64,000 nt of DNA from a virus. The position numbers and the translations under genes were made by a program. The stretch spans positions 90-64,089 of IMG/VR virus record IMGVR_UViG_3300026290_000011. One strand, 5' to 3'. Shown piece by piece: positions 9,055 through 58,329 of the stretch. Each line of letters starts with the position of its first letter. Positions within the stretch are counted from its first letter, which is position 1. The notes beneath the pieces are model-generated. The model did no database searches, was not told the origin of the DNA, and saw only the letters and a list, made by a program, of their open reading frames with translations.

Positions 9055-9082
9055 GGCAGTCTTAAAAGACTAATTAACTAAA

Positions 9083-9150
9083 AATTGTAATCTGATAAAA
9101 AGGAGCAATTATTACCCATAAGAGACGGGTGTAATTGCTTTTTCGTTTTT
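9083..9150 (+). promoter_or_regulatory. Conserved leader hairpin plus overlapping intrinsic terminator, copy 2
   Basis: AATTG-TAA-TCT-GATAAAAA-GGA-G-CAATT, then AGCAATTATTACCC/GGGTGTAATTGCT-TTTT. Confidence 0.75.
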
Positions 9151-9165
9151 AAAGGAGTAGAGAAA

Positions 9166-28452: not shown

Positions 28453-28481
28453 TAAAATAGGAAGTAGTAAGTTTTAGTATA

Positions 28482-28545
28482 ATCGGTAATTCGATAAAAA
28501 GAAGCCGATATTGGACGATGTAAGTCCGGTATCGGTTTTTTTATT
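28482..28545 (+). promoter_or_regulatory. Conserved leader hairpin plus overlapping intrinsic terminator, copy 3
   Basis: ATCGG-TAA-TTC-GATAAAAA-GAA-G-CCGAT, then AGCCGATATTGGAC/GTCCGGTATCGGTT-TTTTT. Confidence 0.75.
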
Positions 28546-28568
28546 TTTAAATAAAAAACGGAGAAAAA

Positions 28569-33500: not shown

Positions 33501-36500
33501 GAGAAATACAAACCCCTCGAACCAGAGATGGTTACAGATGTAACGCCAGAGGTTGCAAATGTAACCAAGACAGAGAAAGTCATAAAAGATGCTCAGTCTC
33601 AACTCGATAAACTTTTAGCCCGTAGAAAAGAAATATACAATCTAATGGAGCAGACAAGGGATAATTTACAGTTTCAGAAGTTGGCAAAAGAAGATAGCGA
33701 CTTAATTGGTAAGATTAACCAAATAGAAAAAAAATATAAAATTGGTGGACGTGGTAAGTTTGGGGAAAAGACAATTAAAGATATTGTTAACTTGGCAGTT
33801 AGAGAATATCAAGAACAACCCGCCTTTATTAGTTTCCAATTTCTTAACCCACAAGCCAGAGGAATGGGGATTAAGAAATTAGAAAAAGCTGGTTATAATG
33901 TTAAGAAACTTGACGACAATTACATTAAAATTGAAAAGCGAATAGGGGAAGAAGTTACAAAAGAAACCGATGTAATAAGCGATAAAGAAAAAATAGAGGA
34001 GAAAGAATCAAGGGTAAAATTCTATGAAGTAGCTCCAGATGAAGTTAATGTCAATACCGAAGCGATGCAGAACAGAGAAGCGAAATTCAGCAAAGAAACC
34101 TATAATAGTATTATTGAAGATGTAAAGAGTGGTGATTTTGATATAGCAAACATTCCGCCGGTAATGGTTTACAAAGATGAAACGGGTAAATTATGGACGT
34201 TAAACCATTCACGGTTGAAAGCATATCAAGACTTAAAAGCAGAAGGTAATGAAGATTTCCAAACAATCCCGGTTCAAGAAATCAAAGCAAAAAATTTAGA
34301 AGAAGCCGGGAAGTTAGCAAAAGAAAAAAGTAATATAGGCGCAAAAGAAACCCCTATTGAAAGAGCAAAAATTTATCGTAAGGATAGAGAGGGCGGTTTA
34401 CCGGAAAACAGAATTATTCAGAAAGCCGAACAATTAGAGGGTAGAAATAAAAATCACGTAATCAATCTTAGTTATCTTAACCCGGACGGTAAAACTATAA
34501 CTTCTTATTCTAATGTAGGCGAGAATGTAAGCGGCGGACGTGTAATGAGAGATGTTGCCGATTATATAGGTGAAGTAAGAAAGGAAAATAAAGAACTTAC
34601 AGACTTACACGAAGATGAATTATTTGAATGGTTATATACTAACGGAGCTATGGATAACTTCAAAAATAAAATTAAGTTTAAGGAAAACATAGAATCGTTT
34701 GTAAAACATGCCTCATTCAATCCGAATGAACTTTTAGGAGTTGGTAAGAATAAAGTAGTACGTGGAAGCCACACAATAGAAGTAGATAAAAAACTTGAAG
34801 GCGCACGTAAACGAAGAAAAGATTTAGAAAAAGAAAGAACTGATTTTGAAGCGGGCAAAACATCGTTACCTTTTGGGCTTACACCAAAAGAATACCTATC
34901 GGAAATATCCCAAAAAATTGCTAATATTGATAAGGACATTTTAGACCTTACCGAAGATAGGCGTACTGCTGTTCAGTCCGATAGGTTACAAGACGATTTA
35001 TTTAGTCAAATAACAGAGGAAGTAGAAAATGAACAAGCCGAAGAAATTATCGCCACAAGACCGACTGAAGAACTCGAAGAACTTGCTGAGAATACTGAAA
35101 GCATTGAAAAGTCTAAAAAGCGAATTAGCACTGAGGAAATCCAGCAAGCAGTAGATAAAGTTGAAGTAGTAATAAAACCCAAAAAATCCGCTCCTCTAAT
35201 AAAACCACCTAAAGGCACAAACGCCGTAATAGTAACCTTCAACAACGGTAAAGTAAGTAAACTTCCGGCAAAAGACCTTGATGTAATAGGCAATGATTAT
35301 TCCACAGTAAAAGAGCTTTCTTTTGGCAATGTAGAGTTTAACAAATCGGGCGGGTTGAAGTGGGACACGTTCAAAGAAGTTAAAAAAATTGTACCAAGCG
35401 AACAGACCTTACGCCAAAGTATTGAGAATGAGGGAGATAGTGAATATCTTTCTTCTGTGAAAAAAGATAAAGGGGCGGGCGTAAACCTTCCAGAGAACAA
35501 ACCCCAAACGCCGGAAGGGAAAAAAGTGTTACCGAAGACAGTCAATGATTTGCCAAGTTTAGGGACGGATAGTATCGGTAGGAATATTCCCAACTGGAAG
35601 GGATCAAGAGTTTATCATTCTACAAACGAACAAGGGCTAAAAGACATATCACAAAAAGGTTACAGATTTTTAGAAGGGGATTTAGAAGATGAGCAAATGG
35701 GTTATTATGGCAAGGCGATTTCATTCACCCCAGATTTAGAATATACCCGCCAATTTGGAAAATATATCACAGTCGCAAAATTGTCTGATGATATAAAGAT
35801 ACTAAACCTTAACAACGAGACAGATTGGAATAAATATTTACAACTAACAAAGAATATTTCATCCGACAAATATGGAGACGCAATAAGAGAAGCTGGTTAC
35901 GATGGACTTTATGATGCCGGAGCGGGTGATTTATTTATCGTAAATCCAAAGAAAATTAAATATGAGGGGATAGACAAGGATTATGAAGATTCCCAAAGTC
36001 AACTTTTTTATGAGATGAGCAGAGAGGATTACGGTAAAATAAAGGGCGAAAAGCCAAAATTTTACGCCAGATTTTCGGCGCATTTGCCAGATGATTTGAA
36101 GCGTAATTGGAGTTCTTGGAATTTTGGAGCAGAAGGATTTAAAGGGACACAAGAAGAATTAGAAAATTATCTTAATTCAGCGACAGATGAACTCCCTGCA
36201 TTTGTTTCAGGGTTTGACATATATCCTGGAACAAAAAATCAATTTGATATTAGAGAATTATACCCTAACTATTGGGTTGTTGTTGACAAGGGGTTTCTTG
36301 GCGGTCTTGCAGGTCACGAATTAGAAGCAGAAGATATACAGAGTGCATTAGAGGAAGTCAAAAAAAATAGACATGGCGGAACAGGAGAGGGCGACTTTTT
36401 TAATGCCGAACAATTTATACCCGTTTATTCAGAAGAACCTTATGGAAAATTTGGTTTACATATTTTAAGAACGGAAGATGCAGAGATCACTAAAGAACAT

Positions 36501-39500
36501 AAGGCGTTAGTTAAACAAGCTATTGAGAATGGTAAAATAAAATCGCATCCAGACTATCCCGAATTATCAAGTCAACCAAACCGCACACCAGATAAGGGTG
36601 TGCAAACACTTAATCAAGATATACTTGAAAGAAACGACTTACAAAAACTACAGGACAGAAAACGACATCTTGAATTAGTTATTGAGGAAGCCGGAAAGAA
36701 AAATAACACTAAGGCAGTAACAGACGCTAAGAACGAATTAAAAGAAGTAAACCGTAAACTTTCAAACCGTAGGTCAAAAGAATCTCAGTTTGATATTTTT
36801 GGCGATGCGCAAAACCAAGAAACTCTTTTCCAAACAAACCACAATAAAACACGTACAGCGTTTAACAAGTTAAGCCCGAAAGAACAGACCAAGTTTCTTA
36901 ACCAACTTGAAAAGATGTTAGCCGATAATTGGGGAGTGGAGTTTAAGAACTTAAGCAAAGAGCAAGCGGCGGGAATTACTCAGTTACTTAAAAGAATGAT
37001 TCAGTTAGACCCGGACACAGCTAACCTTACTACTGTTTGGGAGGAAGCGTTCCACGCAAGTATGATAGCCCTTGCTAAACCTTTTGCAGCAAGAAATATG
37101 TTACGGGAAGCCGGATGGAACGGCAAGGGTGAAATTTGGGATGTAGTTAATAATCAATCTTTAAGAGACGCACACGAAAAACTTGCAAAGGATTTTATCA
37201 AGTGGGCAGAAAGCAGTAAAGAACCAAGTACACGCACAGAGAAAGTATTTGCTTTACTTAAAGATTTGTGGAACAAGATAGCAGCGTTTCTTTATCAATC
37301 TGGTTTTCACACACACGCCGGATATTTTGAAATGCTTTACAGTGGAAAGTTAAAAGCGAGTGCGGAGGGAATTAATGTAGAAGACTTAGCCCAAAGTTTA
37401 GCGCAAGAAATTAACAGAGAAGAAAACTTTAAGCGTTGGTTTGGAAAATCAAAAGTAGTTGATAAAAAGAAAAATCCTTTGATAGTCTATCATTCCAGCA
37501 CAGAAAATTTTGATGAGTTCCAAATAGGTGATGTTGGTTTTCATTTTGGCACAAAAGAACAAGCCGAGAAACGAGCATCCCCTATTTACAAAAGGGGAAG
37601 AAAACCCCTTACAAGAATTGACGAAAATAACAAGGTGCTTATAACCTCAGAGAGAGCGGGTTTTTATCCCGCTTATTTAAGCATCCAGAACCCGATAGAT
37701 ATTATTGATAATGGATTTGAAGACCCGAATGCGTATGTAGAATCTTTGGCTGAATCAAATGAAATGATGTACGATAAAAAGTTATTCACCAGAAAAGAGT
37801 TAGACGATTTATCCGCAAAACTTGATAATGTTGGAAACAAAAAAGGATTTTCTATTATCCAAAAATTCTTAAAAGACAAAGGATTTGATGGGATAGTTTA
37901 TTTCAACAACTTTGAAGGTGATGGACGTAGTTATGCTGCGTTTAACCCCACCCAAATAAAATCCATCTTCAACAGAGGCACATTTGACCCGAACGATGCG
38001 AATATATTAGGACAATCATTCAGCCCTATTTGGTTTAGTAAGTTAGAAAGAGTAATTGAACAGAAAGCGCCGAATAAGAATATTAACCCTACTTCTTTAA
38101 TAGCGATGTTAAAGAATAACGGAGTAAAGGACGAAGAAATTAAGTGGTTAGATGTGAAAGGATTTCTTGAAGCTAACCCAAAAGCGACTAAGAAAGAATT
38201 AATAGATTATGTAAAGAGTAATCAGGTTGAGATTAAGGAAGTAACGAAAGGAGTTTCTAAAAACATTGAAGACCAATTCAAAGAAAATAATCTAAAAATC
38301 GAAATCAATAATGACGAAACCGAATATCAAAGAGATGGAGAGAACTATTACGATTTAATCGACACAAAAAATGGACATACACTATTTACTGGCGACAGAG
38401 AACAGGTTAGAGAATATGTGCAGAATGATCCGAGATTCAAACTTGGTGAACCAACAAAATTTGAGGATTACAAAACTGCCGGAGGTTCAAATTACAGAGA
38501 AGTGTTGTTTACGCTGCCGGATAATGATACTTATATGCAAAGACATAATGATTGGATAAATTATGCAAGGAGTATGGAATCAAAATATGGTGGTGGATAT
38601 TATTCTCAAATGACACCTGAAGAAAAAATTAGGTATAAAGAATTAGAAGATAATGTAGGAACTCCGAAGAAGGTATTTTCATCCTCTCATTGGGACGAAC
38701 CAAACGTAGTTGCTCATGTAAGACTACAAGACTTTACCGATACAAAAGGAAGGAAAGTTTTATTAGTAGAGGAAGTTCAGAGCGATTGGCACCAAGCAGG
38801 GAAGAAGAAGGGGTATCAAGGCGACACATTAGGGGAAAACTATACGCAAGGCGTTGACGCAAAGGGTAGGGAAAACTATAAATTTCCTAATGCCAAATGG
38901 AGTATTTCTAAAACGCCATCGGGGTCTTATGTTGTCCTCGATGATGAGGGTTTAGCTGTTCATAGAGCAGATACCTTTGACAAAGCCAAAAACGAGATAC
39001 AAAAATGGGAGTTTGATACAAAGTCAACGCCTTCTGCGCCATTCAAATCAACATGGCACGAACTAACCCTTAAAAGAGTATTAAGACTTGCCTCAGAGGA
39101 AGGATATGACGGAATAGCACTAACTACAGGCGAACAGCAAGCGGATAGGTATGACTTGAGTAAACAAGTTGATGAAATAAGATATGACAAACTAAAAAAC
39201 GGTGATTATCAAGTAAACATTTTCAAAGATGGTAAGTCTATTGATTCTAAGAAGGGTGATTTAAAATCACTTGAAGATTATGTTGGGAAAGATATTGTAA
39301 AGAAGATTGCTGATAATAGTAACCCGACATTGAATAGAAATGATAATGTTGAATATAGTGGTTCGTTAAAAGGTGTTGATCTCAAAGTAGGCGGCGAGGG
39401 GATGAAGGGATTTTACGATAAAATGTTACCTTCATTCCTAAACAGTTACGCTAAGAAGTGGGGAGCGAGAGTTGATGAAATAACAATAAATGCCGAGGGA

Positions 39501-42239
39501 TTAGATTTTGATTCATGGTTAGAACAAAAATATCCCAACGAAATAGGGCAACAAATTTCAGCCCAAGACAGAACCCAACTTGTTAAGGAATGGGAAAAGC
39601 AAGTTGGAGATAAGAGCCAAAAAGTTCAATATCTTCCAATAACCGACGCAATGCGTAGTTCAGTATTATTTGAAGGACAGGCGTTATTCCAAAAGCTCCC
39701 GCAAGAACAAGTCAACGTAGAACAGAGAGGAAAGGAAATATACGATTCTGGTAAGACCCGTTACGCAGAATGGGTTAAGGAGATGAGGAAGGAGTTTGGG
39801 GAAAACCAAGATTATAGAAGTATTTATTTATTATCAAAAGTGAAAGATAGCTCTAAATTTAAGACCGATATAACAGCAGATATTTATGAAATGAACCGCA
39901 AAAACAGACAGGGCAAACTTTCCGAAAGTATCGGTAGGGAAAGTAAATCCGCCGTAGAATTTATGAGGAATAAACTTGTCCCGATTAGCACAAGACTTGG
40001 GAACATAGCTCCATCGTTAAAAAGTAGGTTAAGAGAATTTGAATTTGATTATGGCAAAGAAGTAACCGTACAACTAAAAAGGGTACAGCCATTTTTACAA
40101 AAGAGTTCGAAACTTGAAAAAGAAATACAGGCAGATTTAGACCTCGCATTAAAGAACGGCGATGTTAAAAAGATAAACGAAATAATAAAGAATAATGACT
40201 TAGAATCCGAATATAAAGAAGTAAGAACCTTGTTAGATGGATTGTATAAAAAAGCTATTGATGTAGGAATAGACTTAGGATATAGAGAAAATTACCATCC
40301 AAGAAGCGTTAAAGACCTTGAAGCGTTTATAGACTACTTTGAGAAATCCGGTGAATGGAATAGGTTCCAAGAATTGATAGACCAAAAGACAATCCAGAAG
40401 GGAGATATATTAACCCTTGAGGAAAAAGTAAACCTTATCAATAATGCGTTACGTGGTTATAATGACGGCATATCGCTTTCTAAAACCGCTAATATGAAAG
40501 AAAGAAAAGTTCCTATTATAGATTCGGAAATAAACAAATTCTATTATGATTCTAACACGTCTCTTGTAAGATACATCAGTGCAGTAAATGAAATTATAGA
40601 AGCGAGAAAATTCTTTGGTAAGAAGAAACAAGCTAAGGTAAGTAGCGAATTAACCGACATCAGGGATAAAACTAAGAGTTTAAGAAAAGCCAAAATTAAT
40701 GCTTTACAGAATCCAAACGGGGTAACGTTATCTATATATTACCAAGCTAAGAATGAGTTAGAAGATGCAAGGAAACAGTCAAAGGATTACCAAGAAAGAC
40801 TTAAACAAAGACGTGAAAAAACCCTTTATGAAAAGAGAATACTTGAAGGGCATACGGAACTAACTAAAAAGAAATTGATTCCGTTAGAAGAATTCAGCAT
40901 CGATAATTCAATAGGTAATTATGTATTGGATTTAATTAAAGAAAACCAACTAAATGCACAGCAAGCGCAAGAAGTTGAAAGTTTACTTAAAGCAAGGTTC
41001 AACCAACACGGAACTTCAGGACTTGTTTCTTCTATGAAAAACATAAGTTATGTAATAGCACTTGGTTCGCCAACGTCCGCAATTACTCAAATTGGCGATT
41101 TAGCCATACCTCTTTATAGGACAGGTCCCTTAAGAACGTTACAGGCGTTAGGGGAATCGGTATTTAATAGAGGAGCAATAAAACTTGAAGATTTAGGAAT
41201 TAACCCGGAGAAGATAGCCCAAGAATTTTCAGACCCAAGAAGAAGATCGAGAATGGTTCAGAAAGTGTTCACTCTTACGGGATTTAATAAAATTGACATA
41301 CTTGGTAAAGAAACGTTAGTGAATGCAACCTTAAAGAAATACCAGAGAAAAGCTAATAATCCTAATAAAGAGTTTCTTAGAAGATTAGAAAAGGTATTTG
41401 AAGGTGAAACAGACCAGGTAATAAAAGACTTACAAAACAAAGAGATTACCGAAAATGTAAAATTGTTATTATTCAATGAGTTATTAGACACTCAACCGAT
41501 AGCACTTTCAGAGATGCCCGAAGGATATTTAACGGCAGGCGATGGAAGAATATTTTATATGTTAAAAACTTTCTTTATTAGAAGAATAGATTACTACAGA
41601 AACGAAACCTTTAAGCTAATGAAGGATAAAGAAACAAGACCGGAAGGGATTAAAAATCTTATTTATTTGACTATATCTATTATGCTAATGGAAGCCGGGG
41701 CAGATGAATTAGAAGATTTATTACTCGGTAGAGAAACATCTCTAAAAGATAGGGTGATAGATAACCTTGCCCGTTTGGTGGGATTTTCAAAATATAGTGT
41801 AGATCAAGTTACAACCAAAGGACTTTTTTCCACAGTAGCCGGAATGATAGTACCTCCGTTTGATTTATTTGATGATATGCAAAAAGACATATTCAATTAT
41901 ATCAATGGTAAAGACGTACCTATTAGAAGCGTAAAAAACATTCCTGTATTAGGCAAGATAGCTTATAATTGGTGGATGGGTGCTTATATGGATAATAAAT
42001 CTTTACTTAGAAAACACGGATTAGATAAATCAGAACAAATTAAAGCCATTAAAGAAAAACAAAAAGAAGTAGACAAATTACGTGAAGACGTTCTTAAGGG
42101 TAAAATAGATAATAGAGTTTACCAGGATGCAAAGGACGACTTAGAATATATGAAACGTGATTCAGAAGATTATGACAGGTATAAATACTTACAGAACGAA
42201 AGGAAAAGAGAGAACGAAAGAATCCTTGAGGGTAGGTAA
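30588..42239 (+). CDS. Giant polyvalent ejection protein (3883 aa)
   Basis: Hydrophobic Gly/Ala segment near aa 380-420; ParB-like fold (IPPVMVY...TLNHSRL); two ART-like segments (VYHST..., FKRWFGKSKVVD...IVYHSS); zincin-like WEEAFH; LVEEVQSDW domain; helical C-terminus. Confidence 0.8.
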   Translation: MLPIKRRPINRNIFGDENEVSTLESPNKTPLNRKPINRDFLSDAPIIEQQETEQSKQPSLATQELNRYFGDPLTGDGQIRQNELGLSNKDKDRVYDIAKKRIKPEDVLGLLEPSQPKGNILSTIIPDAKAEPKFDSFLGDISPIKDTKAQPSTLTPAESTQGFQKESLNRQLLKDIYGLSDEEINKGSSKKAESILLGIEQQGKINQKEYDEIVKSLDTNTKNLEKLHIKINTLKDNIKTPQDLETFNQSIEEYNQLLNQINPSFKRLIELDKSGGELADRSKLAQDYLSRSQREESNVGDLPKEFWKTLKYMPQQAIGGSLEMLNEILAQMNLNKGILYDPEQTAIKKAGTWLREQGKLKERELKPKTGFWGELGSGAATMAIAAPLTAGVSVATGNPVAGFVAGFIPSFVLEGGLAYNEAKEYGLSDKEASLYSLPVGLISGAIEQLSELKILKKLGLTKKIAQEVTEKLAQKKLLPKIGEAMITGAKWEGIEELSQEITQLISESLYKRSEDLPGLNEILERISTSALYGSILGGFMGGGTALLTHPQSKKIAKDLGIRLKAAEERTLQDDTDRIEQINKLFDRKQPIQERTSQPQMGERIIPDAEQQTADLPSLEELQGIKNEPVRTDIAELPKERSTAKDSQEVGEEKTTDFEKVTQRIKEAGITEQQDIEDIIAEAELVQQDEPGKTIDAIIDESLSYYKGLQQPKVDNNANAIKNLAERGRKPEEISKALNVPIEEVAKLVQEKPKTEIAEQKPLEPQPIENVEQSPTKLSNIDYATVEKSLKDIPDLQKKPTGWKLFETKKGEKSFALVDPNTKEYKTFNSYPEAQSYAIDNPITLKEIPSGEIITQKLVQPEPIIDKSIQTDTKVTEQPSNSKEPYDDFINELTNELERSGKQRRKAILEGKQSKATVNIERLANKYNLPKKMVDNLAGIGELSSVDSDPKIIKDVINKSFKQELKKYTDLAEKYKPLEPEMVTDVTPEVANVTKTEKVIKDAQSQLDKLLARRKEIYNLMEQTRDNLQFQKLAKEDSDLIGKINQIEKKYKIGGRGKFGEKTIKDIVNLAVREYQEQPAFISFQFLNPQARGMGIKKLEKAGYNVKKLDDNYIKIEKRIGEEVTKETDVISDKEKIEEKESRVKFYEVAPDEVNVNTEAMQNREAKFSKETYNSIIEDVKSGDFDIANIPPVMVYKDETGKLWTLNHSRLKAYQDLKAEGNEDFQTIPVQEIKAKNLEEAGKLAKEKSNIGAKETPIERAKIYRKDREGGLPENRIIQKAEQLEGRNKNHVINLSYLNPDGKTITSYSNVGENVSGGRVMRDVADYIGEVRKENKELTDLHEDELFEWLYTNGAMDNFKNKIKFKENIESFVKHASFNPNELLGVGKNKVVRGSHTIEVDKKLEGARKRRKDLEKERTDFEAGKTSLPFGLTPKEYLSEISQKIANIDKDILDLTEDRRTAVQSDRLQDDLFSQITEEVENEQAEEIIATRPTEELEELAENTESIEKSKKRISTEEIQQAVDKVEVVIKPKKSAPLIKPPKGTNAVIVTFNNGKVSKLPAKDLDVIGNDYSTVKELSFGNVEFNKSGGLKWDTFKEVKKIVPSEQTLRQSIENEGDSEYLSSVKKDKGAGVNLPENKPQTPEGKKVLPKTVNDLPSLGTDSIGRNIPNWKGSRVYHSTNEQGLKDISQKGYRFLEGDLEDEQMGYYGKAISFTPDLEYTRQFGKYITVAKLSDDIKILNLNNETDWNKYLQLTKNISSDKYGDAIREAGYDGLYDAGAGDLFIVNPKKIKYEGIDKDYEDSQSQLFYEMSREDYGKIKGEKPKFYARFSAHLPDDLKRNWSSWNFGAEGFKGTQEELENYLNSATDELPAFVSGFDIYPGTKNQFDIRELYPNYWVVVDKGFLGGLAGHELEAEDIQSALEEVKKNRHGGTGEGDFFNAEQFIPVYSEEPYGKFGLHILRTEDAEITKEHKALVKQAIENGKIKSHPDYPELSSQPNRTPDKGVQTLNQDILERNDLQKLQDRKRHLELVIEEAGKKNNTKAVTDAKNELKEVNRKLSNRRSKESQFDIFGDAQNQETLFQTNHNKTRTAFNKLSPKEQTKFLNQLEKMLADNWGVEFKNLSKEQAAGITQLLKRMIQLDPDTANLTTVWEEAFHASMIALAKPFAARNMLREAGWNGKGEIWDVVNNQSLRDAHEKLAKDFIKWAESSKEPSTRTEKVFALLKDLWNKIAAFLYQSGFHTHAGYFEMLYSGKLKASAEGINVEDLAQSLAQEINREENFKRWFGKSKVVDKKKNPLIVYHSSTENFDEFQIGDVGFHFGTKEQAEKRASPIYKRGRKPLTRIDENNKVLITSERAGFYPAYLSIQNPIDIIDNGFEDPNAYVESLAESNEMMYDKKLFTRKELDDLSAKLDNVGNKKGFSIIQKFLKDKGFDGIVYFNNFEGDGRSYAAFNPTQIKSIFNRGTFDPNDANILGQSFSPIWFSKLERVIEQKAPNKNINPTSLIAMLKNNGVKDEEIKWLDVKGFLEANPKATKKELIDYVKSNQVEIKEVTKGVSKNIEDQFKENNLKIEINNDETEYQRDGENYYDLIDTKNGHTLFTGDREQVREYVQNDPRFKLGEPTKFEDYKTAGGSNYREVLFTLPDNDTYMQRHNDWINYARSMESKYGGGYYSQMTPEEKIRYKELEDNVGTPKKVFSSSHWDEPNVVAHVRLQDFTDTKGRKVLLVEEVQSDWHQAGKKKGYQGDTLGENYTQGVDAKGRENYKFPNAKWSISKTPSGSYVVLDDEGLAVHRADTFDKAKNEIQKWEFDTKSTPSAPFKSTWHELTLKRVLRLASEEGYDGIALTTGEQQADRYDLSKQVDEIRYDKLKNGDYQVNIFKDGKSIDSKKGDLKSLEDYVGKDIVKKIADNSNPTLNRNDNVEYSGSLKGVDLKVGGEGMKGFYDKMLPSFLNSYAKKWGARVDEITINAEGLDFDSWLEQKYPNEIGQQISAQDRTQLVKEWEKQVGDKSQKVQYLPITDAMRSSVLFEGQALFQKLPQEQVNVEQRGKEIYDSGKTRYAEWVKEMRKEFGENQDYRSIYLLSKVKDSSKFKTDITADIYEMNRKNRQGKLSESIGRESKSAVEFMRNKLVPISTRLGNIAPSLKSRLREFEFDYGKEVTVQLKRVQPFLQKSSKLEKEIQADLDLALKNGDVKKINEIIKNNDLESEYKEVRTLLDGLYKKAIDVGIDLGYRENYHPRSVKDLEAFIDYFEKSGEWNRFQELIDQKTIQKGDILTLEEKVNLINNALRGYNDGISLSKTANMKERKVPIIDSEINKFYYDSNTSLVRYISAVNEIIEARKFFGKKKQAKVSSELTDIRDKTKSLRKAKINALQNPNGVTLSIYYQAKNELEDARKQSKDYQERLKQRREKTLYEKRILEGHTELTKKKLIPLEEFSIDNSIGNYVLDLIKENQLNAQQAQEVESLLKARFNQHGTSGLVSSMKNISYVIALGSPTSAITQIGDLAIPLYRTGPLRTLQALGESVFNRGAIKLEDLGINPEKIAQEFSDPRRRSRMVQKVFTLTGFNKIDILGKETLVNATLKKYQRKANNPNKEFLRRLEKVFEGETDQVIKDLQNKEITENVKLLLFNELLDTQPIALSEMPEGYLTAGDGRIFYMLKTFFIRRIDYYRNETFKLMKDKETRPEGIKNLIYLTISIMLMEAGADELEDLLLGRETSLKDRVIDNLARLVGFSKYSVDQVTTKGLFSTVAGMIVPPFDLFDDMQKDIFNYINGKDVPIRSVKNIPVLGKIAYNWWMGAYMDNKSLLRKHGLDKSEQIKAIKEKQKEVDKLREDVLKGKIDNRVYQDAKDDLEYMKRDSEDYDRYKYLQNERKRENERILEGR

Positions 42240-42255: not shown

Positions 42256-42552
42256 TTAAATTGCCAAAGCAAAATGTGAGTTTATTTCCTCTATTTTTTC
42301 TTCCACAAGTTGTTCGGTTAACTGATTGTGTTTTTCTAAATGGCAAATTTCGCAAAGCACTACTAAGTCTTCCATTTTTTCTGAATAAATCCTTGCATAA
42401 GTCTTATGGTGTACTTGTAGGTTCTTTATATTCCTGCACGACTCGCACATGCTACCTACTGACTTCAGTTTAGCACCCCTTTTTATTTTCCATTCACGGC
42501 TTAATAGATATGATTTATAATCAGCCCATACTTTTTGCTTCTTTCTTTTTTC
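42256..42552 (-). pseudogene. HNH endonuclease, 3' part (interrupted by IS)
   Basis: YKSYLLSREWKIKR...CESC...LQVHH...LCEICH; frame is open up to the TSD. Confidence 0.85.
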
Positions 42553-42567
42553 GGTAGTGTCTCAGTT

Positions 42568-43398
42568 TCATTTTTTATCTAATAATTGCACTAAATCTTC
42601 AATCGACCATAGTTTTTTTGTTAATCCCGCATCCATTGCAGGCGTAACCCTTAAAGATTTATGGATTCTTACAAAGTTATAATACATGAAATGAAGTGCT
42701 ATTGCATGAGCGTGGTTTTCTATCTTCTTAGAAAATCCATTTGTTAGGCGTGTAAATCTTCTCATACTCATTCGCATTGTTAAATTTTGACGTTCAACAA
42801 AACTTGTTGAAATATGTTTTGTCTTAGGTATGCCTGTAACAACATTTACTTTTGTTCCTGTGCATTCTGCCGGACTGTATCTGTGTCCCCTGTCTAAAGA
42901 TTCTCCATATAGTTTTACAAGTTGAGCATAATCTATGTCTGCTCCAAATGTTGTTTCAACAGCTTCTAAGTATGCTTTCAATCCGTCTGTGGTTAATTGT
43001 ACCCGATCACTTAATCTTGATGCTACGTCTTCCATAAATATTTTTGCATATTCTGCATCACGATTTCCAACAAGCCAAGATACTGCAAGTTTAGAATCAG
43101 AGTCTAAAGCAACCCAAGTCCAAACACTTCCAAGCCCAAACTTGCCCTGCATATCTTCGGGAAGATTTTTTTCTTTGGCATAAACGAAAGACCAAATTTC
43201 ATCACATTGAATTCTTTTTGCTTTAACATTTTTTACATTTTCATCGTGGTATTTTTGACAAGCCGTTCCAATATCAACTAATAATTTTGTTACTGTGTTT
43301 ATCGAAACATCTGCAAGTCTTGAAGTTGCTCTTAAACTATTTCCTTCAACAAGTAATCCAACAATCTGAATTCTTTTTTCTGTTGATAGCTTATTCAT
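42568..43398 (-). CDS. IS1-family DDE transposase (single ORF)
   Basis: N-terminal HTH (GNSLRATSRLADVSINTV), CDEIWSFV, LTTDGLKAY, VERQNLTMRM..RRFTR; stop codon lies inside the TIR. Confidence 0.92.
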   Translation of the reverse strand: MNKLSTEKRIQIVGLLVEGNSLRATSRLADVSINTVTKLLVDIGTACQKYHDENVKNVKAKRIQCDEIWSFVYAKEKNLPEDMQGKFGLGSVWTWVALDSDSKLAVSWLVGNRDAEYAKIFMEDVASRLSDRVQLTTDGLKAYLEAVETTFGADIDYAQLVKLYGESLDRGHRYSPAECTGTKVNVVTGIPKTKHISTSFVERQNLTMRMSMRRFTRLTNGFSKKIENHAHAIALHFMYYNFVRIHKSLRVTPAMDAGLTKKLWSIEDLVQLLDKK

Positions 43399-43424
43399 AA
43401 CAACCTCATTTATTTTCTAACGGC

Positions 43425-43458
43425 AATATAATAAACTATACTTAATCAGTCAAGTATA
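43425..43458 (-). promoter_or_regulatory. Transposase promoter with overlapping palindrome
   Basis: TTGACT-17 nt-TATATT on the minus strand; TATACTT-N8-AAGTATA spans the -35. Confidence 0.65.
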
Positions 43459-43509
43459 AAGTTCAGTTTGCAATTATTTGTATTTATCATTACGTTTGCA
43501 TCAAAATAG

Positions 43510-43577
43510 TGGAGCTGGAGGGAATCGAACCCTCATTTGTCGGGTGGGAATCCAGACTTTTTACCATAAACAGCCCC
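43510..43577 (-). tRNA. Degenerate tRNA-like RNA: Ala-type acceptor (G3.U70, A73), shortened D-arm, UCC anticodon
   Basis: GGGGCTG/CAGCTCC stem; T-arm GAGGG-TTCGATT-CCCTC; anticodon stem has one mismatch, loop ATTCCCA; no encoded CCA. Confidence 0.55.
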
Positions 43578-43581
43578 ATAG

Positions 43582-43673
43582 CGGTGAGTGTTGGATTTGA
43601 ACCAACGGAACTGAGTGCGAGTCAGTTCGCCGGATTTACAGTCCGGTCGTTTAAACCACTCACGCAACTCACC
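43582..43673 (-). tRNA. Type II tRNA with GUA (Tyr) anticodon and Ser-like body
   Basis: GGTGAGT/ACTCACC acceptor, CCGGA-CTGTAAA-TCCGG, 7-bp variable stem, GTTGG-TTCAAAT-CCAAC, discriminator G. Confidence 0.85.
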
Positions 43674-43682
43674 GATTTTGAT

Positions 43683-43706
43683 AGCCACTCTTTTGAGTGG
43701 CTTTTT
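43683..43706 (+). terminator. Intrinsic terminator on the + strand (antisense to the tRNAs)
   Basis: AGCCACTC-TTTT-GAGTGGCT followed by TTTT. Confidence 0.6.
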
Positions 43707-43763
43707 ATTAATACCTTTCATAAACATATAGTCGATTGATCCTCAAAAAAAACAAATTTAAAA

Positions 43764-43833
43764 CAAAAAAAGCCGGTACTATTCTCGCTTTCATACGAGT
43801 TTAATACCGGCTCCTTTTCATCGGATTACCGAT
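43764..43833 (-). promoter_or_regulatory. Conserved leader hairpin plus overlapping intrinsic terminator, copy 4 (upstream of the tRNAs)
   Basis: Minus strand ATCGG-TAA-TCC-GATGAAAA-GGA-G-CCGGT, then AGCCGGTA...TACCGGCT-TTTTTT. Confidence 0.75.
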
Positions 43834-43922
43834 TTTTCTGTTAATGGGTTACATTAACAGTATAAAGTATTTTATCAATGTGAAAATTCATTATAAACGC
43901 AAGTGGTTGGGGCAAGGGGGGG

Positions 43923-44141
43923 TTATTGCTTTATAGGTTCAAGTTGTTGGAAGGAAACCCCGATAGATTTTAATCTTTCGGATAGATTGACTACTTCTCT
44001 TTCGTTTAACTTTGTTCTTCTTCCGGCTTTTTGTCTTTGTACTTTATGTTTAACATTAGAATAACTTACGCCTGCAGAATCACATATTTGCTTTAAATTA
44101 AGAAATCGAGAATATTCGTCTAATCTTTTAATATCGATCAT
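43923..44141 (-). CDS. Small HTH-like protein (IS passenger)
   Basis: LNLKQICDSAGVSYSNVK helix-turn-helix pattern; ATGA coupling. Confidence 0.55.
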   Translation of the reverse strand: MIDIKRLDEYSRFLNLKQICDSAGVSYSNVKHKVQRQKAGRRTKLNEREVVNLSERLKSIGVSFQQLEPIKQ

Positions 44142-44383
44142 TTTTTGTTCTCCTTTTTACTCCATCTTACTTGTGCTGCTTTTTTTGCAATCTCTACTCT
44201 TTGTTTCTTTGTTAGTTTCTCTGCTCTTGCTTTACCACCCTTTAACCCTCCTAATCTTCCGAGTTCTACTGCGTGAGGGTTCTTTGTGGTTGCTTCCTCT
44301 TTTTCTTCCTTCTCTCCAATTGCAAGTTCTACAATGTTCTTTGCAAGTTGGTTAGTGTCTTTTGGTCTCTTTGGCTTTTTCAT
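44138..44383 (-). CDS. Small basic KGG-motif protein, commonly seen next to this IS1-type transposase
   Basis: KRPKDTNQLAK...KNPHAVELGRLGGLKGGKARA...EIAKKAA..RW. TTGACC-17-TATCTT promoter (44390-44418) would give a nearly leaderless mRNA. Confidence 0.8.
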   Translation of the reverse strand: MKKPKRPKDTNQLAKNIVELAIGEKEEKEEATTKNPHAVELGRLGGLKGGKARAEKLTKKQRVEIAKKAAQVRWSKKENKK

Positions 44384-44458
44384 AATGCAAAGATAATATA
44401 CTGTTCTTTATCGGTCAAGCATTAACGGATTCCACTATTTTGAAACTGAGACACTACC

Positions 44459-44538
44459 CTTTTTTCTTTGTACCACTTATTAGATGCAATTCTTGACATC
44501 CTTTCTCTTTTTGTCTCCTTCATGTTCACCCTTGTCAT
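44459..44538 (-). pseudogene. HNH endonuclease, 5' part
   Basis: MTRVNMKETKRERMSRIASNKWYKEK joins in frame to RKKQKVWADY after removing the IS and one TSD copy. Confidence 0.8.
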
Positions 44539-49896: not shown

Positions 49897-50805
49897 ATGT
49901 TTGTAAAATATCAGCACATAGAAAAATATGGAACAGACGAGACCCAAAATATAGAAATAGGAACGTGCTATATTTTCCCAAAAATAGATGGGACAAATGG
50001 AAGTGTATGGATAGAAAATAATATTATTAAAGCGGGTAGTAGAAGAAGAGAATTGAGTTTAGATGACGACAATGCGGGTTTTTATGAGTGGATATTAAAG
50101 CAAGAGAGCTTAAAACGCTTTTTGGAAGCATACCCTCATTTAAGACTATTTGGAGAATGGTTAGTTCCTCATAGTCTAAAAACTTATAGAGATGATGCCT
50201 GGGGAAAGTTTTATGTTTTTGATGTATGCCAAACAAGAGATGGCGATGAAGATGAACTATTAAAGTATCTAAGATACGAAGATTACAAACCTTTGTTAGA
50301 CCAGTTTGGTATTGAATATATACCCCCTATAAGGATTATTAAAAATGGTAGTTATGAAGATTTTATAAAACTTTTAGAAAGCAATAACTATTTAGTAAAA
50401 GATGGATTTGGTAGCGGAGAGGGTGTTGTAATTAAAAACTATAGTTATGAAAACAAATATAAACGACAAACGTGGGCAAAAATAGTAACAAGCGAATTCA
50501 AAGAAAAACATCACAAAGAAATGGGTGCGCCTATTGTGAATGGCAAACAGCTAATCGAAGATGAAATAGTAAAAGATTTTTGCACAGATGCTTTAATAAA
50601 AAAAACGTTTGGGAAAATTAAAGCTGAGAACGATGGATGGAATAGTAGATATATACCGCAACTTTTAGGGCGTGTTTGGCATGATTTAATTAAAGAAGAA
50701 ACTTGGACTTTCATTAAGAAATTTAAAAACCCGATTATAAATTTCAAAACATTACAATACAAGGTAACTTTAAAGATAAAAGAAACATTACCCGAAATTT
50801 TTTAA
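49897..50805 (+). CDS. RNA ligase (Rnl2-like nucleotidyltransferase)
   Basis: Motif I PKIDGTN, FGEW, FYVFD, EGVVIK, AKIV. Confidence 0.8.
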   Translation: MFVKYQHIEKYGTDETQNIEIGTCYIFPKIDGTNGSVWIENNIIKAGSRRRELSLDDDNAGFYEWILKQESLKRFLEAYPHLRLFGEWLVPHSLKTYRDDAWGKFYVFDVCQTRDGDEDELLKYLRYEDYKPLLDQFGIEYIPPIRIIKNGSYEDFIKLLESNNYLVKDGFGSGEGVVIKNYSYENKYKRQTWAKIVTSEFKEKHHKEMGAPIVNGKQLIEDEIVKDFCTDALIKKTFGKIKAENDGWNSRYIPQLLGRVWHDLIKEETWTFIKKFKNPIINFKTLQYKVTLKIKETLPEIF

Positions 50806-50916: not shown

Positions 50917-51183
50917 ATGAAAGAGATTAATTGTAAAATAATAATACTTGAGTGGATGAAAGAGAAAAATCCAATTACTTGTTTTCATCATAACATCGAA
51001 AAAGAAGTGCAGGAATACGGACTGGAAAAGTTTGGTAAGATGTATAGTTATGCTACTTATCACCGCAATTTTTGTTGGATAAAAAACGATGAAAAACTTT
51101 TAAGAGAAAACGGGATTGAGATTACCCCTTTGATAGAAGGTTCGGGGAAATTAAATAAATGGCGTATCACGTTGATTGTTTGA
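50917..51183 (+). CDS. Hypothetical (possibly winged-helix) protein
   Basis: Last gene before the cassette array. Confidence 0.5.
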   Translation: MKEINCKIIILEWMKEKNPITCFHHNIEKEVQEYGLEKFGKMYSYATYHRNFCWIKNDEKLLRENGIEITPLIEGSGKLNKWRITLIV

Positions 51184-51257
51184 AGGATGATAGCCGTTTT
51201 TCGGTATAACGATGTTGCGGTTAAGTTGCCTCTGGAAATTTTTATAGGGATAAAATA

Positions 51258-51587
51258 ATGAACAACAAAATTTATAAATGTATTCACTGTGGCAGAAACT
51301 TAGGCGATAAAGTGCCACATAGATGCAAAGGAACATTTAGAAAGAGAAAGTTACAATTTCGCAATCGGTTAAGCGGTCAACTTAAACCGCTTGTTATACC
51401 GAAAACGGCGGAAGTAGCCTTCTCGGAAGAATTAAACAAAATAATTGAAGCTGGCAATAAATTAGCCGAAGCAGCACATAAAGTTCAATCTGATTATGAC
51501 GGCATACATAGATTAAGATTAGCACTGTCAGAGTGGTATAAAGTGAGAGCTAATGAGTTTGACCGTGATAGCCGTTTTTCGGTATAA
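51258..51587 (+). CDS. Cassette 1 gene, CxxC zinc-finger hypothetical protein
   Basis: Starts in the attC loop, crosses GTT (51393) as Val, stops at the core TAA. Confidence 0.7.
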   Translation: MNNKIYKCIHCGRNLGDKVPHRCKGTFRKRKLQFRNRLSGQLKPLVIPKTAEVAFSEELNKIIEAGNKLAEAAHKVQSDYDGIHRLRLALSEWYKVRANEFDRDSRFSV

Positions 51588-51709
51588 CGGAATGGAAACT
51601 AAAGCGCAAAAAACTTATGAATGAATTAAATAAATATTTATAAACTAAATTATGCCAACAATCCTTAACTAACCAGCGATATTTTTTGTCGCTTTGAGTT
51701 TTTATTTAG

Positions 51710-51979
51710 TTGGATTTGAGGCGGGAGAAACTTATGAATTTTAAAAAAGGTGATAAGATAGAATGGACTTATGAACATTCTTTGAATCGAAAATCTAAAA
51801 CTCATATAACTAAAACCGGCATTTTTATTAGGGTACTTGATATGAGAAAATTAAGCAGAGCGAGAAGGATTCCGCAATATAATAGCGAAATATCATCTTA
51901 TGCAATAGTACATTTTGATGGGAATAAAAACCCGTCTAAAGTTTTAATTAATGAATTGCGAGCCGCAAATTCCAACTAA
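51710..51979 (+). CDS. Cassette 2 gene, SH3/KOW-like hypothetical protein (likely start 51734)
   Basis: FKKGDKIEW...TGIFIRV; GGGAG RBS before ATG 51734; stop is the core TAA. Confidence 0.65.
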   Translation: MDLRREKLMNFKKGDKIEWTYEHSLNRKSKTHITKTGIFIRVLDMRKLSRARRIPQYNSEISSYAIVHFDGNKNPSKVLINELRAANSN

Positions 51980-52033
51980 CGCTGCGGTTTTTAAGCCGTT
52001 GCGGAAATATTAACAATTTAATTTGAGGATAAA

Positions 52034-52393
52034 ATGAACACAGAAGAAAAGAAATTGCACAAAGAAATTGTTGAAGAATTAAAAAATAAAGGATGGACTA
52101 ACCCAGCAATAAATGAAAGTTTTGCACAGGAATTAATTTTAGATGTTTACAAGATAGCAAGCAATCGGCTTGAAAAAATTGTTAGCCAGAAAACGGCGGG
52201 CGGATGGAGAGACGCAAAGAAAGACCCGCCAGAGTTATCAACATCAATGAAAATAAATGCAGTATTAGTTATACACAGAAATTATATAAAATTTGGATGG
52301 AAAACAGAGATTGGGTGGCATATAGAAAATTCGCCAAGTTATTGGGACGAAGAAATTAAATATTGGATGCCATTACCAGAATTGCCAGAATGA
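52034..52393 (+). CDS. Cassette 3 gene, DUF551-like protein
   Basis: WRDAKKDPP...YWMPLPELP; crosses GTT 52181 as Val. Confidence 0.65.
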   Translation: MNTEEKKLHKEIVEELKNKGWTNPAINESFAQELILDVYKIASNRLEKIVSQKTAGGWRDAKKDPPELSTSMKINAVLVIHRNYIKFGWKTEIGWHIENSPSYWDEEIKYWMPLPELPE

Positions 52394-52566
52394 TAGCCGT
52401 TTTTCTGGCTAACAGATTTGCAACTAACAAGATTGCGGAAGCAAAGAATGAACTTAGATTTTTTAATTAACATAAAATTATTAACAAACAAAAATAGCCA
52501 AACCGTAATAGCAATTCTTTGTTGATTGCCTTGTTATACGGATTTTGGCGGACATAGGAGTATCTA

Positions 52567-52845
52567 ATGGAATTTACAAAAGAAGAAATATTGCAGTGCA
52601 TTAGCGGAGAATTGCTTGCCGAATGTATAGCAGATAAAATATTACAGAACAAAAAAAATCATTTTGAGGAATTTGATAAAGCCCTAATCGAGGGTATGAG
52701 AAAAGCTGCACGGATGGTAGTTGACGAACTGATTAAAGAATATGATTTTGAGAAGGAAATACAGACAAGAGTCAAAAACACTTTAACCAGTATGACGAAA
52801 GCGGAAGTATTAAGGCTTATAGCGAAAGAGGAAGTTATTTTTTAA
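52567..52845 (+). CDS. Cassette 4 gene, hypothetical protein
   Basis: AGGAG RBS just downstream of GTT 52533. Confidence 0.65.
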   Translation: MEFTKEEILQCISGELLAECIADKILQNKKNHFEEFDKALIEGMRKAARMVVDELIKEYDFEKEIQTRVKNTLTSMTKAEVLRLIAKEEVIF

Positions 52846-52930
52846 GGAATGCGAGCCAAAATTCCGTATAACGGATCGAGCATAAGCAGTTGCGGTAACA
52901 AATAAAAAAACTAAACAATAGGAGTTACAA

Positions 52931-53266
52931 ATGGAAACAGTAGTAAAAATTAAATGGGACGAACCGAGCGATAAAAATTGGTTGTGTCCAGACAACATCA
53001 AAACGGCTTTAAGTGCTTATTGCACAAATACAAAATTTGAGGTAAGCGAGGTTGATAGCAATCTGCTTGATGCGCAAGTTAGCCAAGCCGTTTCTCAGGC
53101 GATGCCGGAGCCGAACTCTCAAGTTTGCGCTAATTGTAAGTGGCTGGCTGATAGAGATGGAGAGAACAACTATTTCTGTAATTGTTATGAATCAGAAACT
53201 TGTGATATACTAATCATTTTGAAAGATACATTCGGGTGCAACAAATTTGAGCGCAAACTTTTGTGA
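52931..53266 (+). CDS. Cassette 5 gene, Cys-rich hypothetical protein
   Basis: AGGAG RBS in the loop; CANC...C.C...C; crosses GTT 53078 as Val. Confidence 0.65.
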   Translation: METVVKIKWDEPSDKNWLCPDNIKTALSAYCTNTKFEVSEVDSNLLDAQVSQAVSQAMPEPNSQVCANCKWLADRDGENNYFCNCYESETCDILIILKDTFGCNKFERKLL

Positions 53267-53429
53267 GGCGAAGGACTGGCTAACATTGTTGCAATTTACC
53301 CGATTGCGTGCATTGACAAATTGTTTTTATTAAAAGTTTAATGCCTTAAACAAGGCAAATTATAAACGACCGTATCTGATAGCAATTCGGAGTAGAATTG
53401 CGAGTTAGGCGGTAAAATTTGGACGTATT

Positions 53430-53642
53430 ATGAAAAAGAAAAAATTGAGTTGCTATTTTTATTTTGTAGGATGGGACTGTCTAAGTTTCGGAATTCATTT
53501 CTGTTGGAGACTGCCCAATATCGAAATACATATTCCCTTCGGATTTATAAGAATAGGTATAGAGAATCATTACGGGAAATGTATAAACGATGATTTCTGT
53601 AATAAAAGAACTTTTGGGTGGACGAAAATTTTATCCGCCTAA
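53430..53642 (+). CDS. Cassette 6 gene, hypothetical protein
   Basis: Starts after GTT 53404; stop is the core TAA. Confidence 0.55.
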   Translation: MKKKKLSCYFYFVGWDCLSFGIHFCWRLPNIEIHIPFGFIRIGIENHYGKCINDDFCNKRTFGWTKILSA

Positions 53643-53669
53643 CGAGTGGAAACTTACCCGATTGCGTAA

Positions 53670-54476
53670 ATGAAAAAGGAAAACATTTTGAAAGAAGAAA
53701 CTAACATAACAGCACAAACTAAACAGCCCGAAGATAAAAGCAATTCGGGTAGAGTTTTTAGTTATGTGCCGTTTTATGATTTAGATAATATTACATTGTT
53801 TAATAATGATTACCGAAATGTAATTGATAGCCTTGCGCCCGCAGATTTGATTATTGCCGATCCTCCTTATGGGGAAAAACAAGCAAGTTGGGATGAGGAG
53901 AAACCAGATGAAGAAGTTTGGCGGACATTCTATGATAAATTAAAAGACGGTGGTGTTTTATATTATTGGGGTTTTTGGGGGCACGCTGAATGGATATTGA
54001 GAAATGCAAGGCGAGCGGGTTTTACTGAACAGAGTAGAATCGTTTGGTGGTTTGCAACAGGAAGACCAGAGAAAAAAAGTTATAGGGAAGATACAGAAGA
54101 TTGTTATTACTTTTCTAAGGGTGAACCAAATTACTTCAATCCGAATAATTATTACGAACCTTATGACAAAGTTTCTAATTACGAACGATATAATAAAAAC
54201 GGCAAACATCCAGGAACGATATGGCGAGCGAGTCGGATAATGTGGAATCATCCCGAAAATGTCGGGCACGAAACCCAAAAACCCCTTACGCTTTATAAAA
54301 AAATAATTGATATATCTTGTCCGCCAAACGGCATTGTTTACGATTTCTTTTGTGGAAGCGGAACGACTTTATTAGCAGCTAAACAGTTGGGGCGCAAGGC
54401 GGTCGGAATAGAAAAAGAAGAAAAATATTGCAATATAATAACGAAGAGACTAAGCCAAATGGAAATGCAACTTTGA
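53670..54476 (+). CDS. Cassette 7 gene, beta-class N6A/N4C DNA methyltransferase
   Basis: ADPPY precedes HETQKP and DFFCGSGTT. Confidence 0.9.
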   Translation: MKKENILKEETNITAQTKQPEDKSNSGRVFSYVPFYDLDNITLFNNDYRNVIDSLAPADLIIADPPYGEKQASWDEEKPDEEVWRTFYDKLKDGGVLYYWGFWGHAEWILRNARRAGFTEQSRIVWWFATGRPEKKSYREDTEDCYYFSKGEPNYFNPNNYYEPYDKVSNYERYNKNGKHPGTIWRASRIMWNHPENVGHETQKPLTLYKKIIDISCPPNGIVYDFFCGSGTTLLAAKQLGRKAVGIEKEEKYCNIITKRLSQMEMQL

Positions 54477-54573
54477 AAAAATGAGGCACATAACGGAGTT
54501 GCGGCTAAGCGGTGCCGGAAAGGTAAGCACAAAACAGATTTGAATAACATAACCATAAACAAGGAGTAGTAAC

Positions 54574-54765
54574 ATGATTAATATAAGTGATTTAAACGAA
54601 CTCTATTCTGCCGTGCAAATGCTTGAAAGCATGACACAATTAGTAGAAAGTCTTAATAGTAAGACCAATAATAATATTTATGAAGAAACTAAATACGCGA
54701 GGATAGCAATTAAGCGAGCAAAAGAAGCGTATGAGAAAATTAAGACCTCTACCTATGTTAGTTAA
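54574..54765 (+). CDS. Hypothetical protein lying wholly inside the cassette 8 attC loop
   Basis: AAGGAG RBS; lies between the L arms at 54500-54515 and 54774-54791. Confidence 0.55.
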   Translation: MINISDLNELYSAVQMLESMTQLVESLNSKTNNNIYEETKYARIAIKRAKEAYEKIKTSTYVS

Positions 54766-55348: not shown

Positions 55349-55394
55349 CATATTGCGGTTAACCTTGCGAGCGGACTAAAACAGAAATGAAATT

Positions 55395-56048: not shown

Positions 56049-56075
56049 CGGTCAAAACTAAAGCGCAAAAACGGA

Positions 56076-56387: not shown

Positions 56388-56456
56388 CCCTTTTGTCAAA
56401 CTAACGGAGTTGGCGATAATGCGCTATCACAAAATTAAAACAAAAGGAATGATGCA

Positions 56457-56819: not shown

Positions 56820-56862
56820 CGGTGTGGTTTTTTACCCGCACGGCTAAACAGAAAAAAATATT

Positions 56863-57501: not shown

Positions 57502-57549
57502 CGATGTTGCGGTTAAGTTGCCTCTGGAAATTTTTATAGGGATAAAATA

Positions 57550-58271: not shown

Positions 58272-58329
58272 CGCTGCGGTTTTTAAGCCGTTGCGGAATA
58301 TTTATAAATTTAATTTGGAGTAGAAAACC

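Follow-up and report, generated by a model that had tools for sequence, protein, structure and literature searches.

An IS1-type transposon with two tRNA-like genes interrupts an HNH gene of a tailed phage

The DNA analysed here (the window) is a 64,000-nt stretch, positions 90 to 64,089, of the virus record IMGVR_UViG_3300026290_000011, which is 64,270 bp long and is classed as complete by CheckV. The record is that of a tailed phage, encoding a large terminase subunit (TerL), a portal, a major head protein, a tail fibre, an RNA ligase and two DNA methyltransferases. Its long open reading frames (ORFs) lie almost all on the plus strand, with the exception of a minus-strand block at 42256-44538. 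This block is an HNH endonuclease gene split by a 1,906-bp element (42553-44458), which has an IS1-type transposase gene at one end, a gene for a small KGG-motif protein at the other, and two tRNA-like genes in between. Considered as a whole, the element is probably best explained as a unit transposon of the lineage of the insertion sequence (IS) IS1 that was inserted in one piece, together with an RNA module that would be transcribed and processed.

The boundaries of the element are sharply defined. Inverted repeats of the sequence GGTAGTGTCTCAGTTTCA, located at 42553-42570 and 44441-44458, are complementary at 18 of 18 positions, and the 8-bp direct repeat CTTTTTTC is present on both sides of the element (42545-42552 and 44459-44466), as had been proposed in the original prediction. 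The insertion site is composed as follows:

42256..42552, minus strand: HNH endonuclease gene, C-terminal part (Pfam HNH, E 5e-4); its last 8 bp on the plus strand are the left target-site duplication
42545..42552: target-site duplication, left copy (CTTTTTTC)
42553..42570: terminal inverted repeat, transposase end, containing the transposase stop codon
44441..44458: terminal inverted repeat, KGG end
44459..44466: target-site duplication, right copy
44459..44538, minus strand: HNH gene, N-terminal part, with its ATG at 44538 (matches the N-terminus of the protein P0124)

In its present state, the HNH frame enters the IS and then stops. Deletion of the element and one repeat copy in silico yields an open HNH frame of 122 aa (..WYKEK|RKKQKVWADY..); the empty site must hold a single 8-bp repeat, because two copies would shift the frame. 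Such an empty allele is indeed on record. A query with the C-terminal part of the HNH protein retrieved P0121 (119 aa), and the cluster of this protein also contains P0124 (122 aa) and P0126 (117 aa). All three come from other public contigs, read ..SNKWYKEKRKKQKVWADY.. without interruption and are 100% identical to both window halves across the junction. The interrupted allele, recognizable as a 64-aa truncated HNH form, is found on four contigs from three sources. Since an uninterrupted allele with identical flanking protein sequence exists, the insertion is recent and polymorphic in the phage population. Furthermore, the uninterrupted HNH protein on other contigs shows that the whole 1,906-bp unit, tRNAs included, moved together: the tRNAs, the ORF adjoining the KGG gene and the KGG gene itself all came in with the transposase. 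The predicted restoration of the HNH frame upon removal of the IS is thus borne out, as is the placement of the tRNA block within the inverted repeats: none of the 1,906 bp is present in the empty allele, and the closest relative of the element has the same gene order (see below). The target is a free-standing, dispensable HNH nuclease gene of the tailed phage; close HNH relatives were sought in viral contigs and none was found.

Between its inverted repeats, the element contains the following features:

42568..43398, minus strand: intact single-ORF IS1-type DDE transposase, 276 aa (Pfam PF03400)
43425..43470, minus strand: transposase promoter block, with a CAAACTGAAC box, a near-palindrome (ATACTTG-N6-TAAGTAT) over the -35 and then a -10 (promoter scan)
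43510..43577, minus strand: 68-nt tRNA-like RNA without D stem, with G3·U70, A73 and the loop AUUCCCA (Rfam tRNA, 31.1 bits)
43582..43673, minus strand: class II tRNA with anticodon GUA (Tyr), 7/5 cloverleaf, 7-bp variable-arm stem and discriminator G73 (Rfam tRNA, ARAGORN)
43758..43845, minus strand: small hairpin (ATCGG-TAAT-CCGAT), A-tract, long stem and U-tract, following the 72-aa ORF (four-copy consensus fold)
43923..44141, minus strand: 72-aa ORF with four helices, resembling a helix-turn-helix (HTH) protein and overlapping the KGG stop by 4 nt
44138..44383, minus strand: 81-aa basic KGG-motif protein (tblastn conservation in the lineage)
44390..44423, minus strand: promoter-like site upstream of the KGG gene, AATGCTTGACC.. 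as -35 and then a -10, resembling the transposase promoter (promoter scan)

The transposase matches the Pfam family DDE_Tnp_IS1 (PF03400) with 28.0 bits, above the gathering cutoff of 24.1, and NCBIfam transpos_IS1 with 63.1 bits, below the equivalog cutoff of 100, which places it in a distant IS1 subgroup. A homologue search returned at least 8,000 proteins, and the 276-aa ORF is full length by comparison with homologues of 274-278 aa. Residues D66, D138 and E202 are invariant in 12 diverse members and are present in the window copy. The claim of an uninterrupted transposase in an intact IS1-family transporter element therefore holds. Upstream of the gene, a block consisting of CAAACTGAAC followed by ATGCTTGAC-N-GTCAAGCAT is conserved in most relatives across phyla. 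In the window the near-palindrome occupies 43438-43457, and it makes a candidate palindromic operator within the transposase promoter.

Relatives were taken from viral contigs (31) and bacterial genomes (80). The closest bacterial ones, at 80% identity, are found in metagenome-assembled genomes of Ignavibacteriota and Bacteroidota, and others at 60-70% identity occur in Nitrospirota, Acidobacteriota, Proteobacteria, Zixibacteria and more. Inverted repeats of the GGTAGTG type could be paired around the transposase in 84 loci, giving element sizes of 1.5-4.8 kb, and a perfect 8-bp duplication flanks 55 non-redundant elements. Variable genes lie between KGG and the transposase, sometimes also after the transposase; judged by sequence only, they look like XRE/ImmA-type, toxin-antitoxin-like and ATPase genes. 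The window element is among the smallest of the lineage. These elements form a distinct and very widespread lineage of the IS1 family, with a core made of the inverted repeats, the KGG gene and a single-ORF transposase with a conserved promoter, and with a variable cargo bay. No published description of such a cargo-carrying IS1/KGG lineage was found in the literature searched.

IS1 elements have terminal repeats beginning with GGT and 8-9-bp target duplications, and the present element resembles them in its DDE_Tnp_IS1 transposase, in inverted repeats starting with GGT, in the 8-bp target duplication and in the promoter/operator at the transposase gene. It differs from canonical IS1, in which insA and insB' are joined by a -1 frameshift, in having a single 276-aa ORF, as do the single-ORF subgroups, and it adds a conserved KGG gene and a cargo bay, which bring the present element to 1.9 kb and its relatives to as much as 4.8 kb. 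As defined in the TnCentral preprint (10.1101/2021.05.26.445724), transporter IS (tIS) belong to the IS1595 and IS66 families. Like these, the element has an IS-like build with passenger genes inside the inverted repeats and moves as a unit; unlike them, it is of the IS1 type and has RNA genes among its passengers.

A reading of the KGG gene as a passenger is not supported. In most of the 84 elements, tblastn detects the KGG ORF immediately within the inverted repeat of the same end, the one remote from the transposase; because it sits at the same end of most relatives, it is a core gene rather than cargo. The protein has no match in Pfam or NCBIfam, and its Atlas clusters carry the automatic name 'histone H1 family'. 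The adjoining 72-aa ORF is a different case. It was found neither in the closest relative (the viral contig L002) nor in any other locus compared, and it is the lineage-specific passenger. Ten homologues are detected at E<=1e-3 among 1.8 billion proteins, and one of them, P0128, was looked for in viral contigs and not found. The ORF has no match in Pfam or PHROG and only a sub-threshold match in NCBIfam. Its AlphaFold model consists of four helices (pLDDT 89), the fold of which weakly resembles XRE/Cro domains, and Foldseek returned no significant match. An ORF is therefore present between KGG and the transposase, as had been announced, and its assignment as an HTH gene is plausible only, in view of the weak likeness of the modelled fold.

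L002 is the closest relative, with a transposase 85% identical to that of the window element at the aa level. Its element reads, in order, inverted repeat, KGG, terminator motif, class II tRNA (anticodon AUA), tRNA-like RNA, a third tRNA-like gene and transposase. Identity between the two elements is unevenly distributed: 88% for the tRNA-like RNA, 80% for the transposase gene, 59% for the KGG gene and 57% for the class II tRNA. The value for the tRNA-like RNA, set beside that for the transposase gene, indicates that this RNA travels with the transposase module. The L002 element is devoid of the transposase-side inverted repeat and abuts an ORF (L002:4822-5109, minus strand) with a HicA-like sequence.

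Both tRNA-like genes of the original prediction exceed the gathering score of the Rfam tRNA model (29 bits), with 57.5 bits for the class II tRNA (43582-43673) and 31.1 bits for the tRNA-like RNA (43510-43577). The former is called Tyr(gta) by ARAGORN and is the only tRNA gene that this program finds in the phage. Its acceptor branch is 7/5, not the 8/4 or 9/3 of allo-tRNAs, and the Rfam alignment places a G (43582) at the discriminator position. The discriminator of tRNA-Tyr is, as far as is known, universally A73, which the window tRNA does not have, and G73 combined with a long variable arm is typical of tRNA-Ser. The identity of the class II tRNA is therefore uncertain, and it may be charged with Ser rather than Tyr. 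The counterpart in L002 (L002:3626-3715) has the anticodon AUA, U73 and an 8/4-like acceptor branch, and it passes the Rfam tRNA-Sec model with 49.5 bits (threshold 47), which makes it look like an allo-tRNA. Even though 43% of positions differ between the two class II tRNAs, all stems are kept through compensatory changes. A search for the window tRNA in 5 genomes that contain close relatives of the transposase, and in 301 genomes of the phylum to which the closest bacterial relatives belong, gave no near match.

The tRNA-like RNA starts five bases after the class II tRNA and is not called by ARAGORN at default settings. In the phylum of the closest bacterial relatives, the genomes contain transfer-messenger RNA (tmRNA) and tRNA-Ala(GGC) genes with 3' ends that are 92-96% identical to the 3' half of the tRNA-like RNA, and most of these genes also have its 5' strand GGGGCTG. 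Its match to the Rfam tmRNA model is confined to the two ends of the model and, at 36.6 bits, falls short of the gathering score (47); no tmRNA in the window is called by ARAGORN. The RNA resembles tmRNA and alanine minihelices in its acceptor (GGGGCUG...CAGCUCCA), G3·U70, A73, canonical T arm and missing D stem, and differs from tmRNA in being only 68 nt long, with neither a tag reading frame nor pseudoknots. The design is shared by six elements (window, L002, L055, L060, L064 and L086), the RNAs of which are 68-71 nt long, possess no D stem and have a 7-bp acceptor, G3·U70 and A73. Covariation was counted on the four alignable copies, because the six-sequence MAFFT alignment was out of register. 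In these four, the acceptor and T helices are 100% paired, with compensatory changes in 5 of 12 pairs; the G3·U70 position is a G·U pair throughout (4/4), and none of 500 shuffles reached the observed covariation score. With four related sequences only, this evidence is supportive rather than conclusive. A G3·U70 pair suffices for charging by alanyl-tRNA synthetase, even of minihelices, and alanylation of the tRNA-like RNA is therefore predicted; it is probably charged by this enzyme through G3·U70 and A73. A degenerate 44-nt pattern of the RNA, run in a metagenome scan and against viral contigs, retrieved only the L002 sequence. The 3' trailer of the RNA also contains one half of a perfect 13-bp inverted repeat (43501-43513), the other half of which lies just inside the KGG-end repeat (44431-44443); the L002 counterpart matches at 9 of 10 positions by eye, and the two halves could pair in a read-through transcript.

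The presence of tRNA passengers in an IS had been described as unusual. This is true in general; within this lineage, however, they recur, since in about 17 of 106 relatives (about 16%) the transposase gene is preceded, on the same strand, by a gene for a tRNA or tRNA-like RNA. Most of these RNA genes lie 80-200 nt from the transposase start, two are further away (340 and 715-790 nt), and 14 of them, in 12 loci, reach the Rfam gathering score. Same-place tRNAs in other loci include a class II tRNA whose UUA anticodon would decode the stop codon UAA (L117:3325-3411), one with anticodon AGA (L105:3263-3349) and one with an 8-nt anticodon loop (UCCC; L064:3346-3420). Among the relatives' tRNAs, those with GGU and GCU anticodons have 8-bp acceptor stems. 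Allo-tRNAs and polycistrons of irregular tRNAs have been reported near toxin-antitoxin systems and a "transposon-related protein", and they include GGU species with G-1 as well as GCU species, some of these irregular tRNAs being charged in vitro yet unused in E. coli translation (Mukai et al. 2017, PMC5389517). The present elements share with these polycistrons the tandem irregular tRNAs, the unusual identity elements and the toxin-antitoxin or transposon-related neighbours. They differ in that the window tRNA has a canonical 7/5 branch and in that the paper placed none of its tRNAs in a defined IS1-type transposon or in a phage. In our view, Mukai et al. had encountered portions of the present lineage, the ends of the transposon not being recognized.

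The third RNA feature of the element, the motif downstream of the 72-aa ORF, had been presented as a phage-type RNA switch and as the fourth copy of a leader/terminator. It is indeed present at the expected place within the element; the window, however, holds two other copies, not three:

9071..9152, plus strand: backbone copy of the hairpin/terminator motif, after an ORF ending at 9054
28470..28548, plus strand: backbone copy of the hairpin/terminator motif, after an ORF ending at 28452; the copy most similar to that of the IS

We compared four copies, namely that of the IS, the backbone copies near 9094 and near 28493, and the one in the L002 element. All follow the order hairpin ATCGG-TAAT-CCGAT, GATGAAAAGGAGCC, long stem and U run. 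In the consensus fold, the A-tract and stem base pair with the U-tract, and 4 of 18 pairs show compensatory changes; no aptamer or alternative pairing is seen in this fold. The motif reaches no Rfam family at threshold (best score 26.9 bits against 47), and both backbone copies directly follow ORF ends. Given this plain terminator-type fold, the designation as an RNA switch is not upheld; the modelled structure is that of an RNA which behaves as an ordinary intrinsic terminator with A-tract, hairpin and U-tract. As to its origin, the IS copy matches the copy near 28493 at about 27 of 31 positions (by eye), which is above its match to the L002 copy. The motif was not found in 81 genomes from the class (Ignavibacteria, as we assume) to which the closest bacterial relative belongs, and in the 26-kb record of L002 it occurs inside the element only. 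The likeness between the IS copy and that near 28493 mildly favours the possibility that the motif came to be shared through exchange with this phage lineage.

How such an RNA module might work can be sketched. The two RNAs would be transcribed towards the transposase gene, and RNase P together with 3' processing enzymes would excise both of them, thereby severing cargo read-through ahead of the transposase message. The small RNAs so released would be stable, and the tRNA-like one would be alanylated. Several points weigh against an element equipped in this way. About 84% of the relatives have no upstream tRNA-like gene, from which it follows that the module is accessory and that transposition does not depend on it. 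With a separate transposase promoter located downstream of the RNA module, and with a terminator situated ahead of the tRNAs, there is no obvious need for an insulating role. On the Rfam tRNA model the tRNA-like RNA scores only 31 bits, and its position 37 is a C. Finally, the current mobility of the element is inferred from its intactness alone: a second copy of the exact element was found nowhere, the phage record collection giving no match and its own record a single copy. That the module is a working device of the transposon, the RNAs of which are made, processed and charged, and either regulate transposase output or maintenance or serve as decoy or mistranslating tRNAs in host-phage-toxin conflicts, is a more specific proposal and one that we regard as doubtful.

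We give a similarly low probability to the main rival explanation, by which the RNAs are ordinary adaptive cargo supplying or replacing host tRNA, for instance against a tRNA-cleaving defence, with the IS as a mere vehicle. Such a role would be in keeping with the phage possessing an RNA ligase of the tRNA-repair kind and having its only tRNA gene supplied by the element, with the bays of other elements holding XRE/ImmA-like, toxin-antitoxin-like and ATPase genes (again on sequence grounds), and with L002 also having a Tyr-anticodon tRNA at the same place, though only 57% identical. Nevertheless, neither RNA looks like a normal decoder: the tRNA-like RNA is without a D stem and has C37, and the class II tRNAs have G73 here and U73 in L002 instead of the A73 of tRNA-Tyr, the L002 anticodon being AUA. 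Position and strand beside the transposase promoter are largely fixed across phyla, which would be unexpected for free cargo, and the 301 genomes of the phylum of the closest bacterial relatives offered no near tRNA match. The irregular identity elements and the largely fixed position thus weaken this explanation. The same irregularities (lost D arm, C at 37, low Rfam score), together with the lack of the block in most relatives and with the report of allo-tRNA pseudogenes overlapping a transposon-related ORF (Mukai et al., PMC5389517), could instead mark the RNA block as a decaying relic, in which tRNA and tmRNA fragments acquired by illegitimate recombination drift without function. This is quite improbable, as compensatory changes maintain the stems, the G·U pair has never been 'repaired' in four diverged copies, and the 88% identity to L002 exceeds that of the neighbouring transposase gene.

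It may also be asked whether the element is one transposon at all. Typical IS1 elements are about 0.8-1.2 kb long and many homologue contigs measure about 1 kb, so that one could envisage an IS of ~1 kb lying beside phage tRNA, HTH and KGG genes, with the distal inverted repeat present by chance or as a solo copy, or else an assembly chimera. The perfect inverted repeats and the 8-bp duplication, the empty allele without the entire 1,906 bp, the interrupted allele on 4 contigs from three sources and the KGG gene by the same inverted repeat in dozens of elements from other phyla all speak against such a composite, which we consider extremely unlikely.

For the phage, the insertion meant the loss of the HNH gene and the gain of its only tRNA gene. 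The route by which phages acquire tRNA genes is, to our knowledge, largely unknown; in the present case, transposition brought a tRNA gene into a phage genome, and both the empty and the filled allele are on record. Should the RNAs prove to be a working device of the transposon, IS1-type transporter elements would represent a direct route for tRNA genes into phages. The work also adds a cargo-carrying lineage of the IS1 type, present in many bacterial phyla, to the tIS, which are restricted to other families in the TnCentral preprint. The alanine-type tRNA-like RNA by the transposase promoter is a further candidate for a non-coding RNA that forms part of a bacterial transposon, of which few are listed so far, and the lineage may account for the irregular tRNAs that Mukai et al. 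observed beside toxin-antitoxin genes.

Some additional observations concern the insertion sites of the relatives. The 8-bp duplications of the 55 elements (loci L003-L116) tend to be rich in A at the beginning and in T at the end. TTGAC or GTCAAG appears, by eye and without counting, within about 25 nt of many of the insertion sites. A constant spacing between insertion site and -35 box was considered on this basis and rejected, as TTGAC lies 27 nt from the target duplication in the window. One related element of 2.9 kb (L035:6300-9280) starts 2 bp past a tRNA-Pro(CGG) gene, and another inverted repeat (L033:175-345) is located about 60 bp from a tRNA-Pro gene.

Elsewhere in the phage genome, the RNA ligase gene (49897-50805, plus strand; phrog_548, E 9e-47) codes for a type of enzyme used by phages for the repair of cleaved tRNAs, a relevant context for a phage that newly gained a tRNA. 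A single ORF of 3,883 aa (30588-42239, plus strand) ends shortly before the HNH gene. Further downstream, the region 51172-58752 contains a 300-nt direct repeat, the two copies of which (51200-51499 and 57492-57791) are 99% identical and are accompanied by shorter repeat families (GATAGCCGTTTTTCGG-type boxes). The two DNA methyltransferase genes (53670-54476 and 58994-59842) are paralogous and, together with the 300-nt repeat, look like a duplicated phage module.

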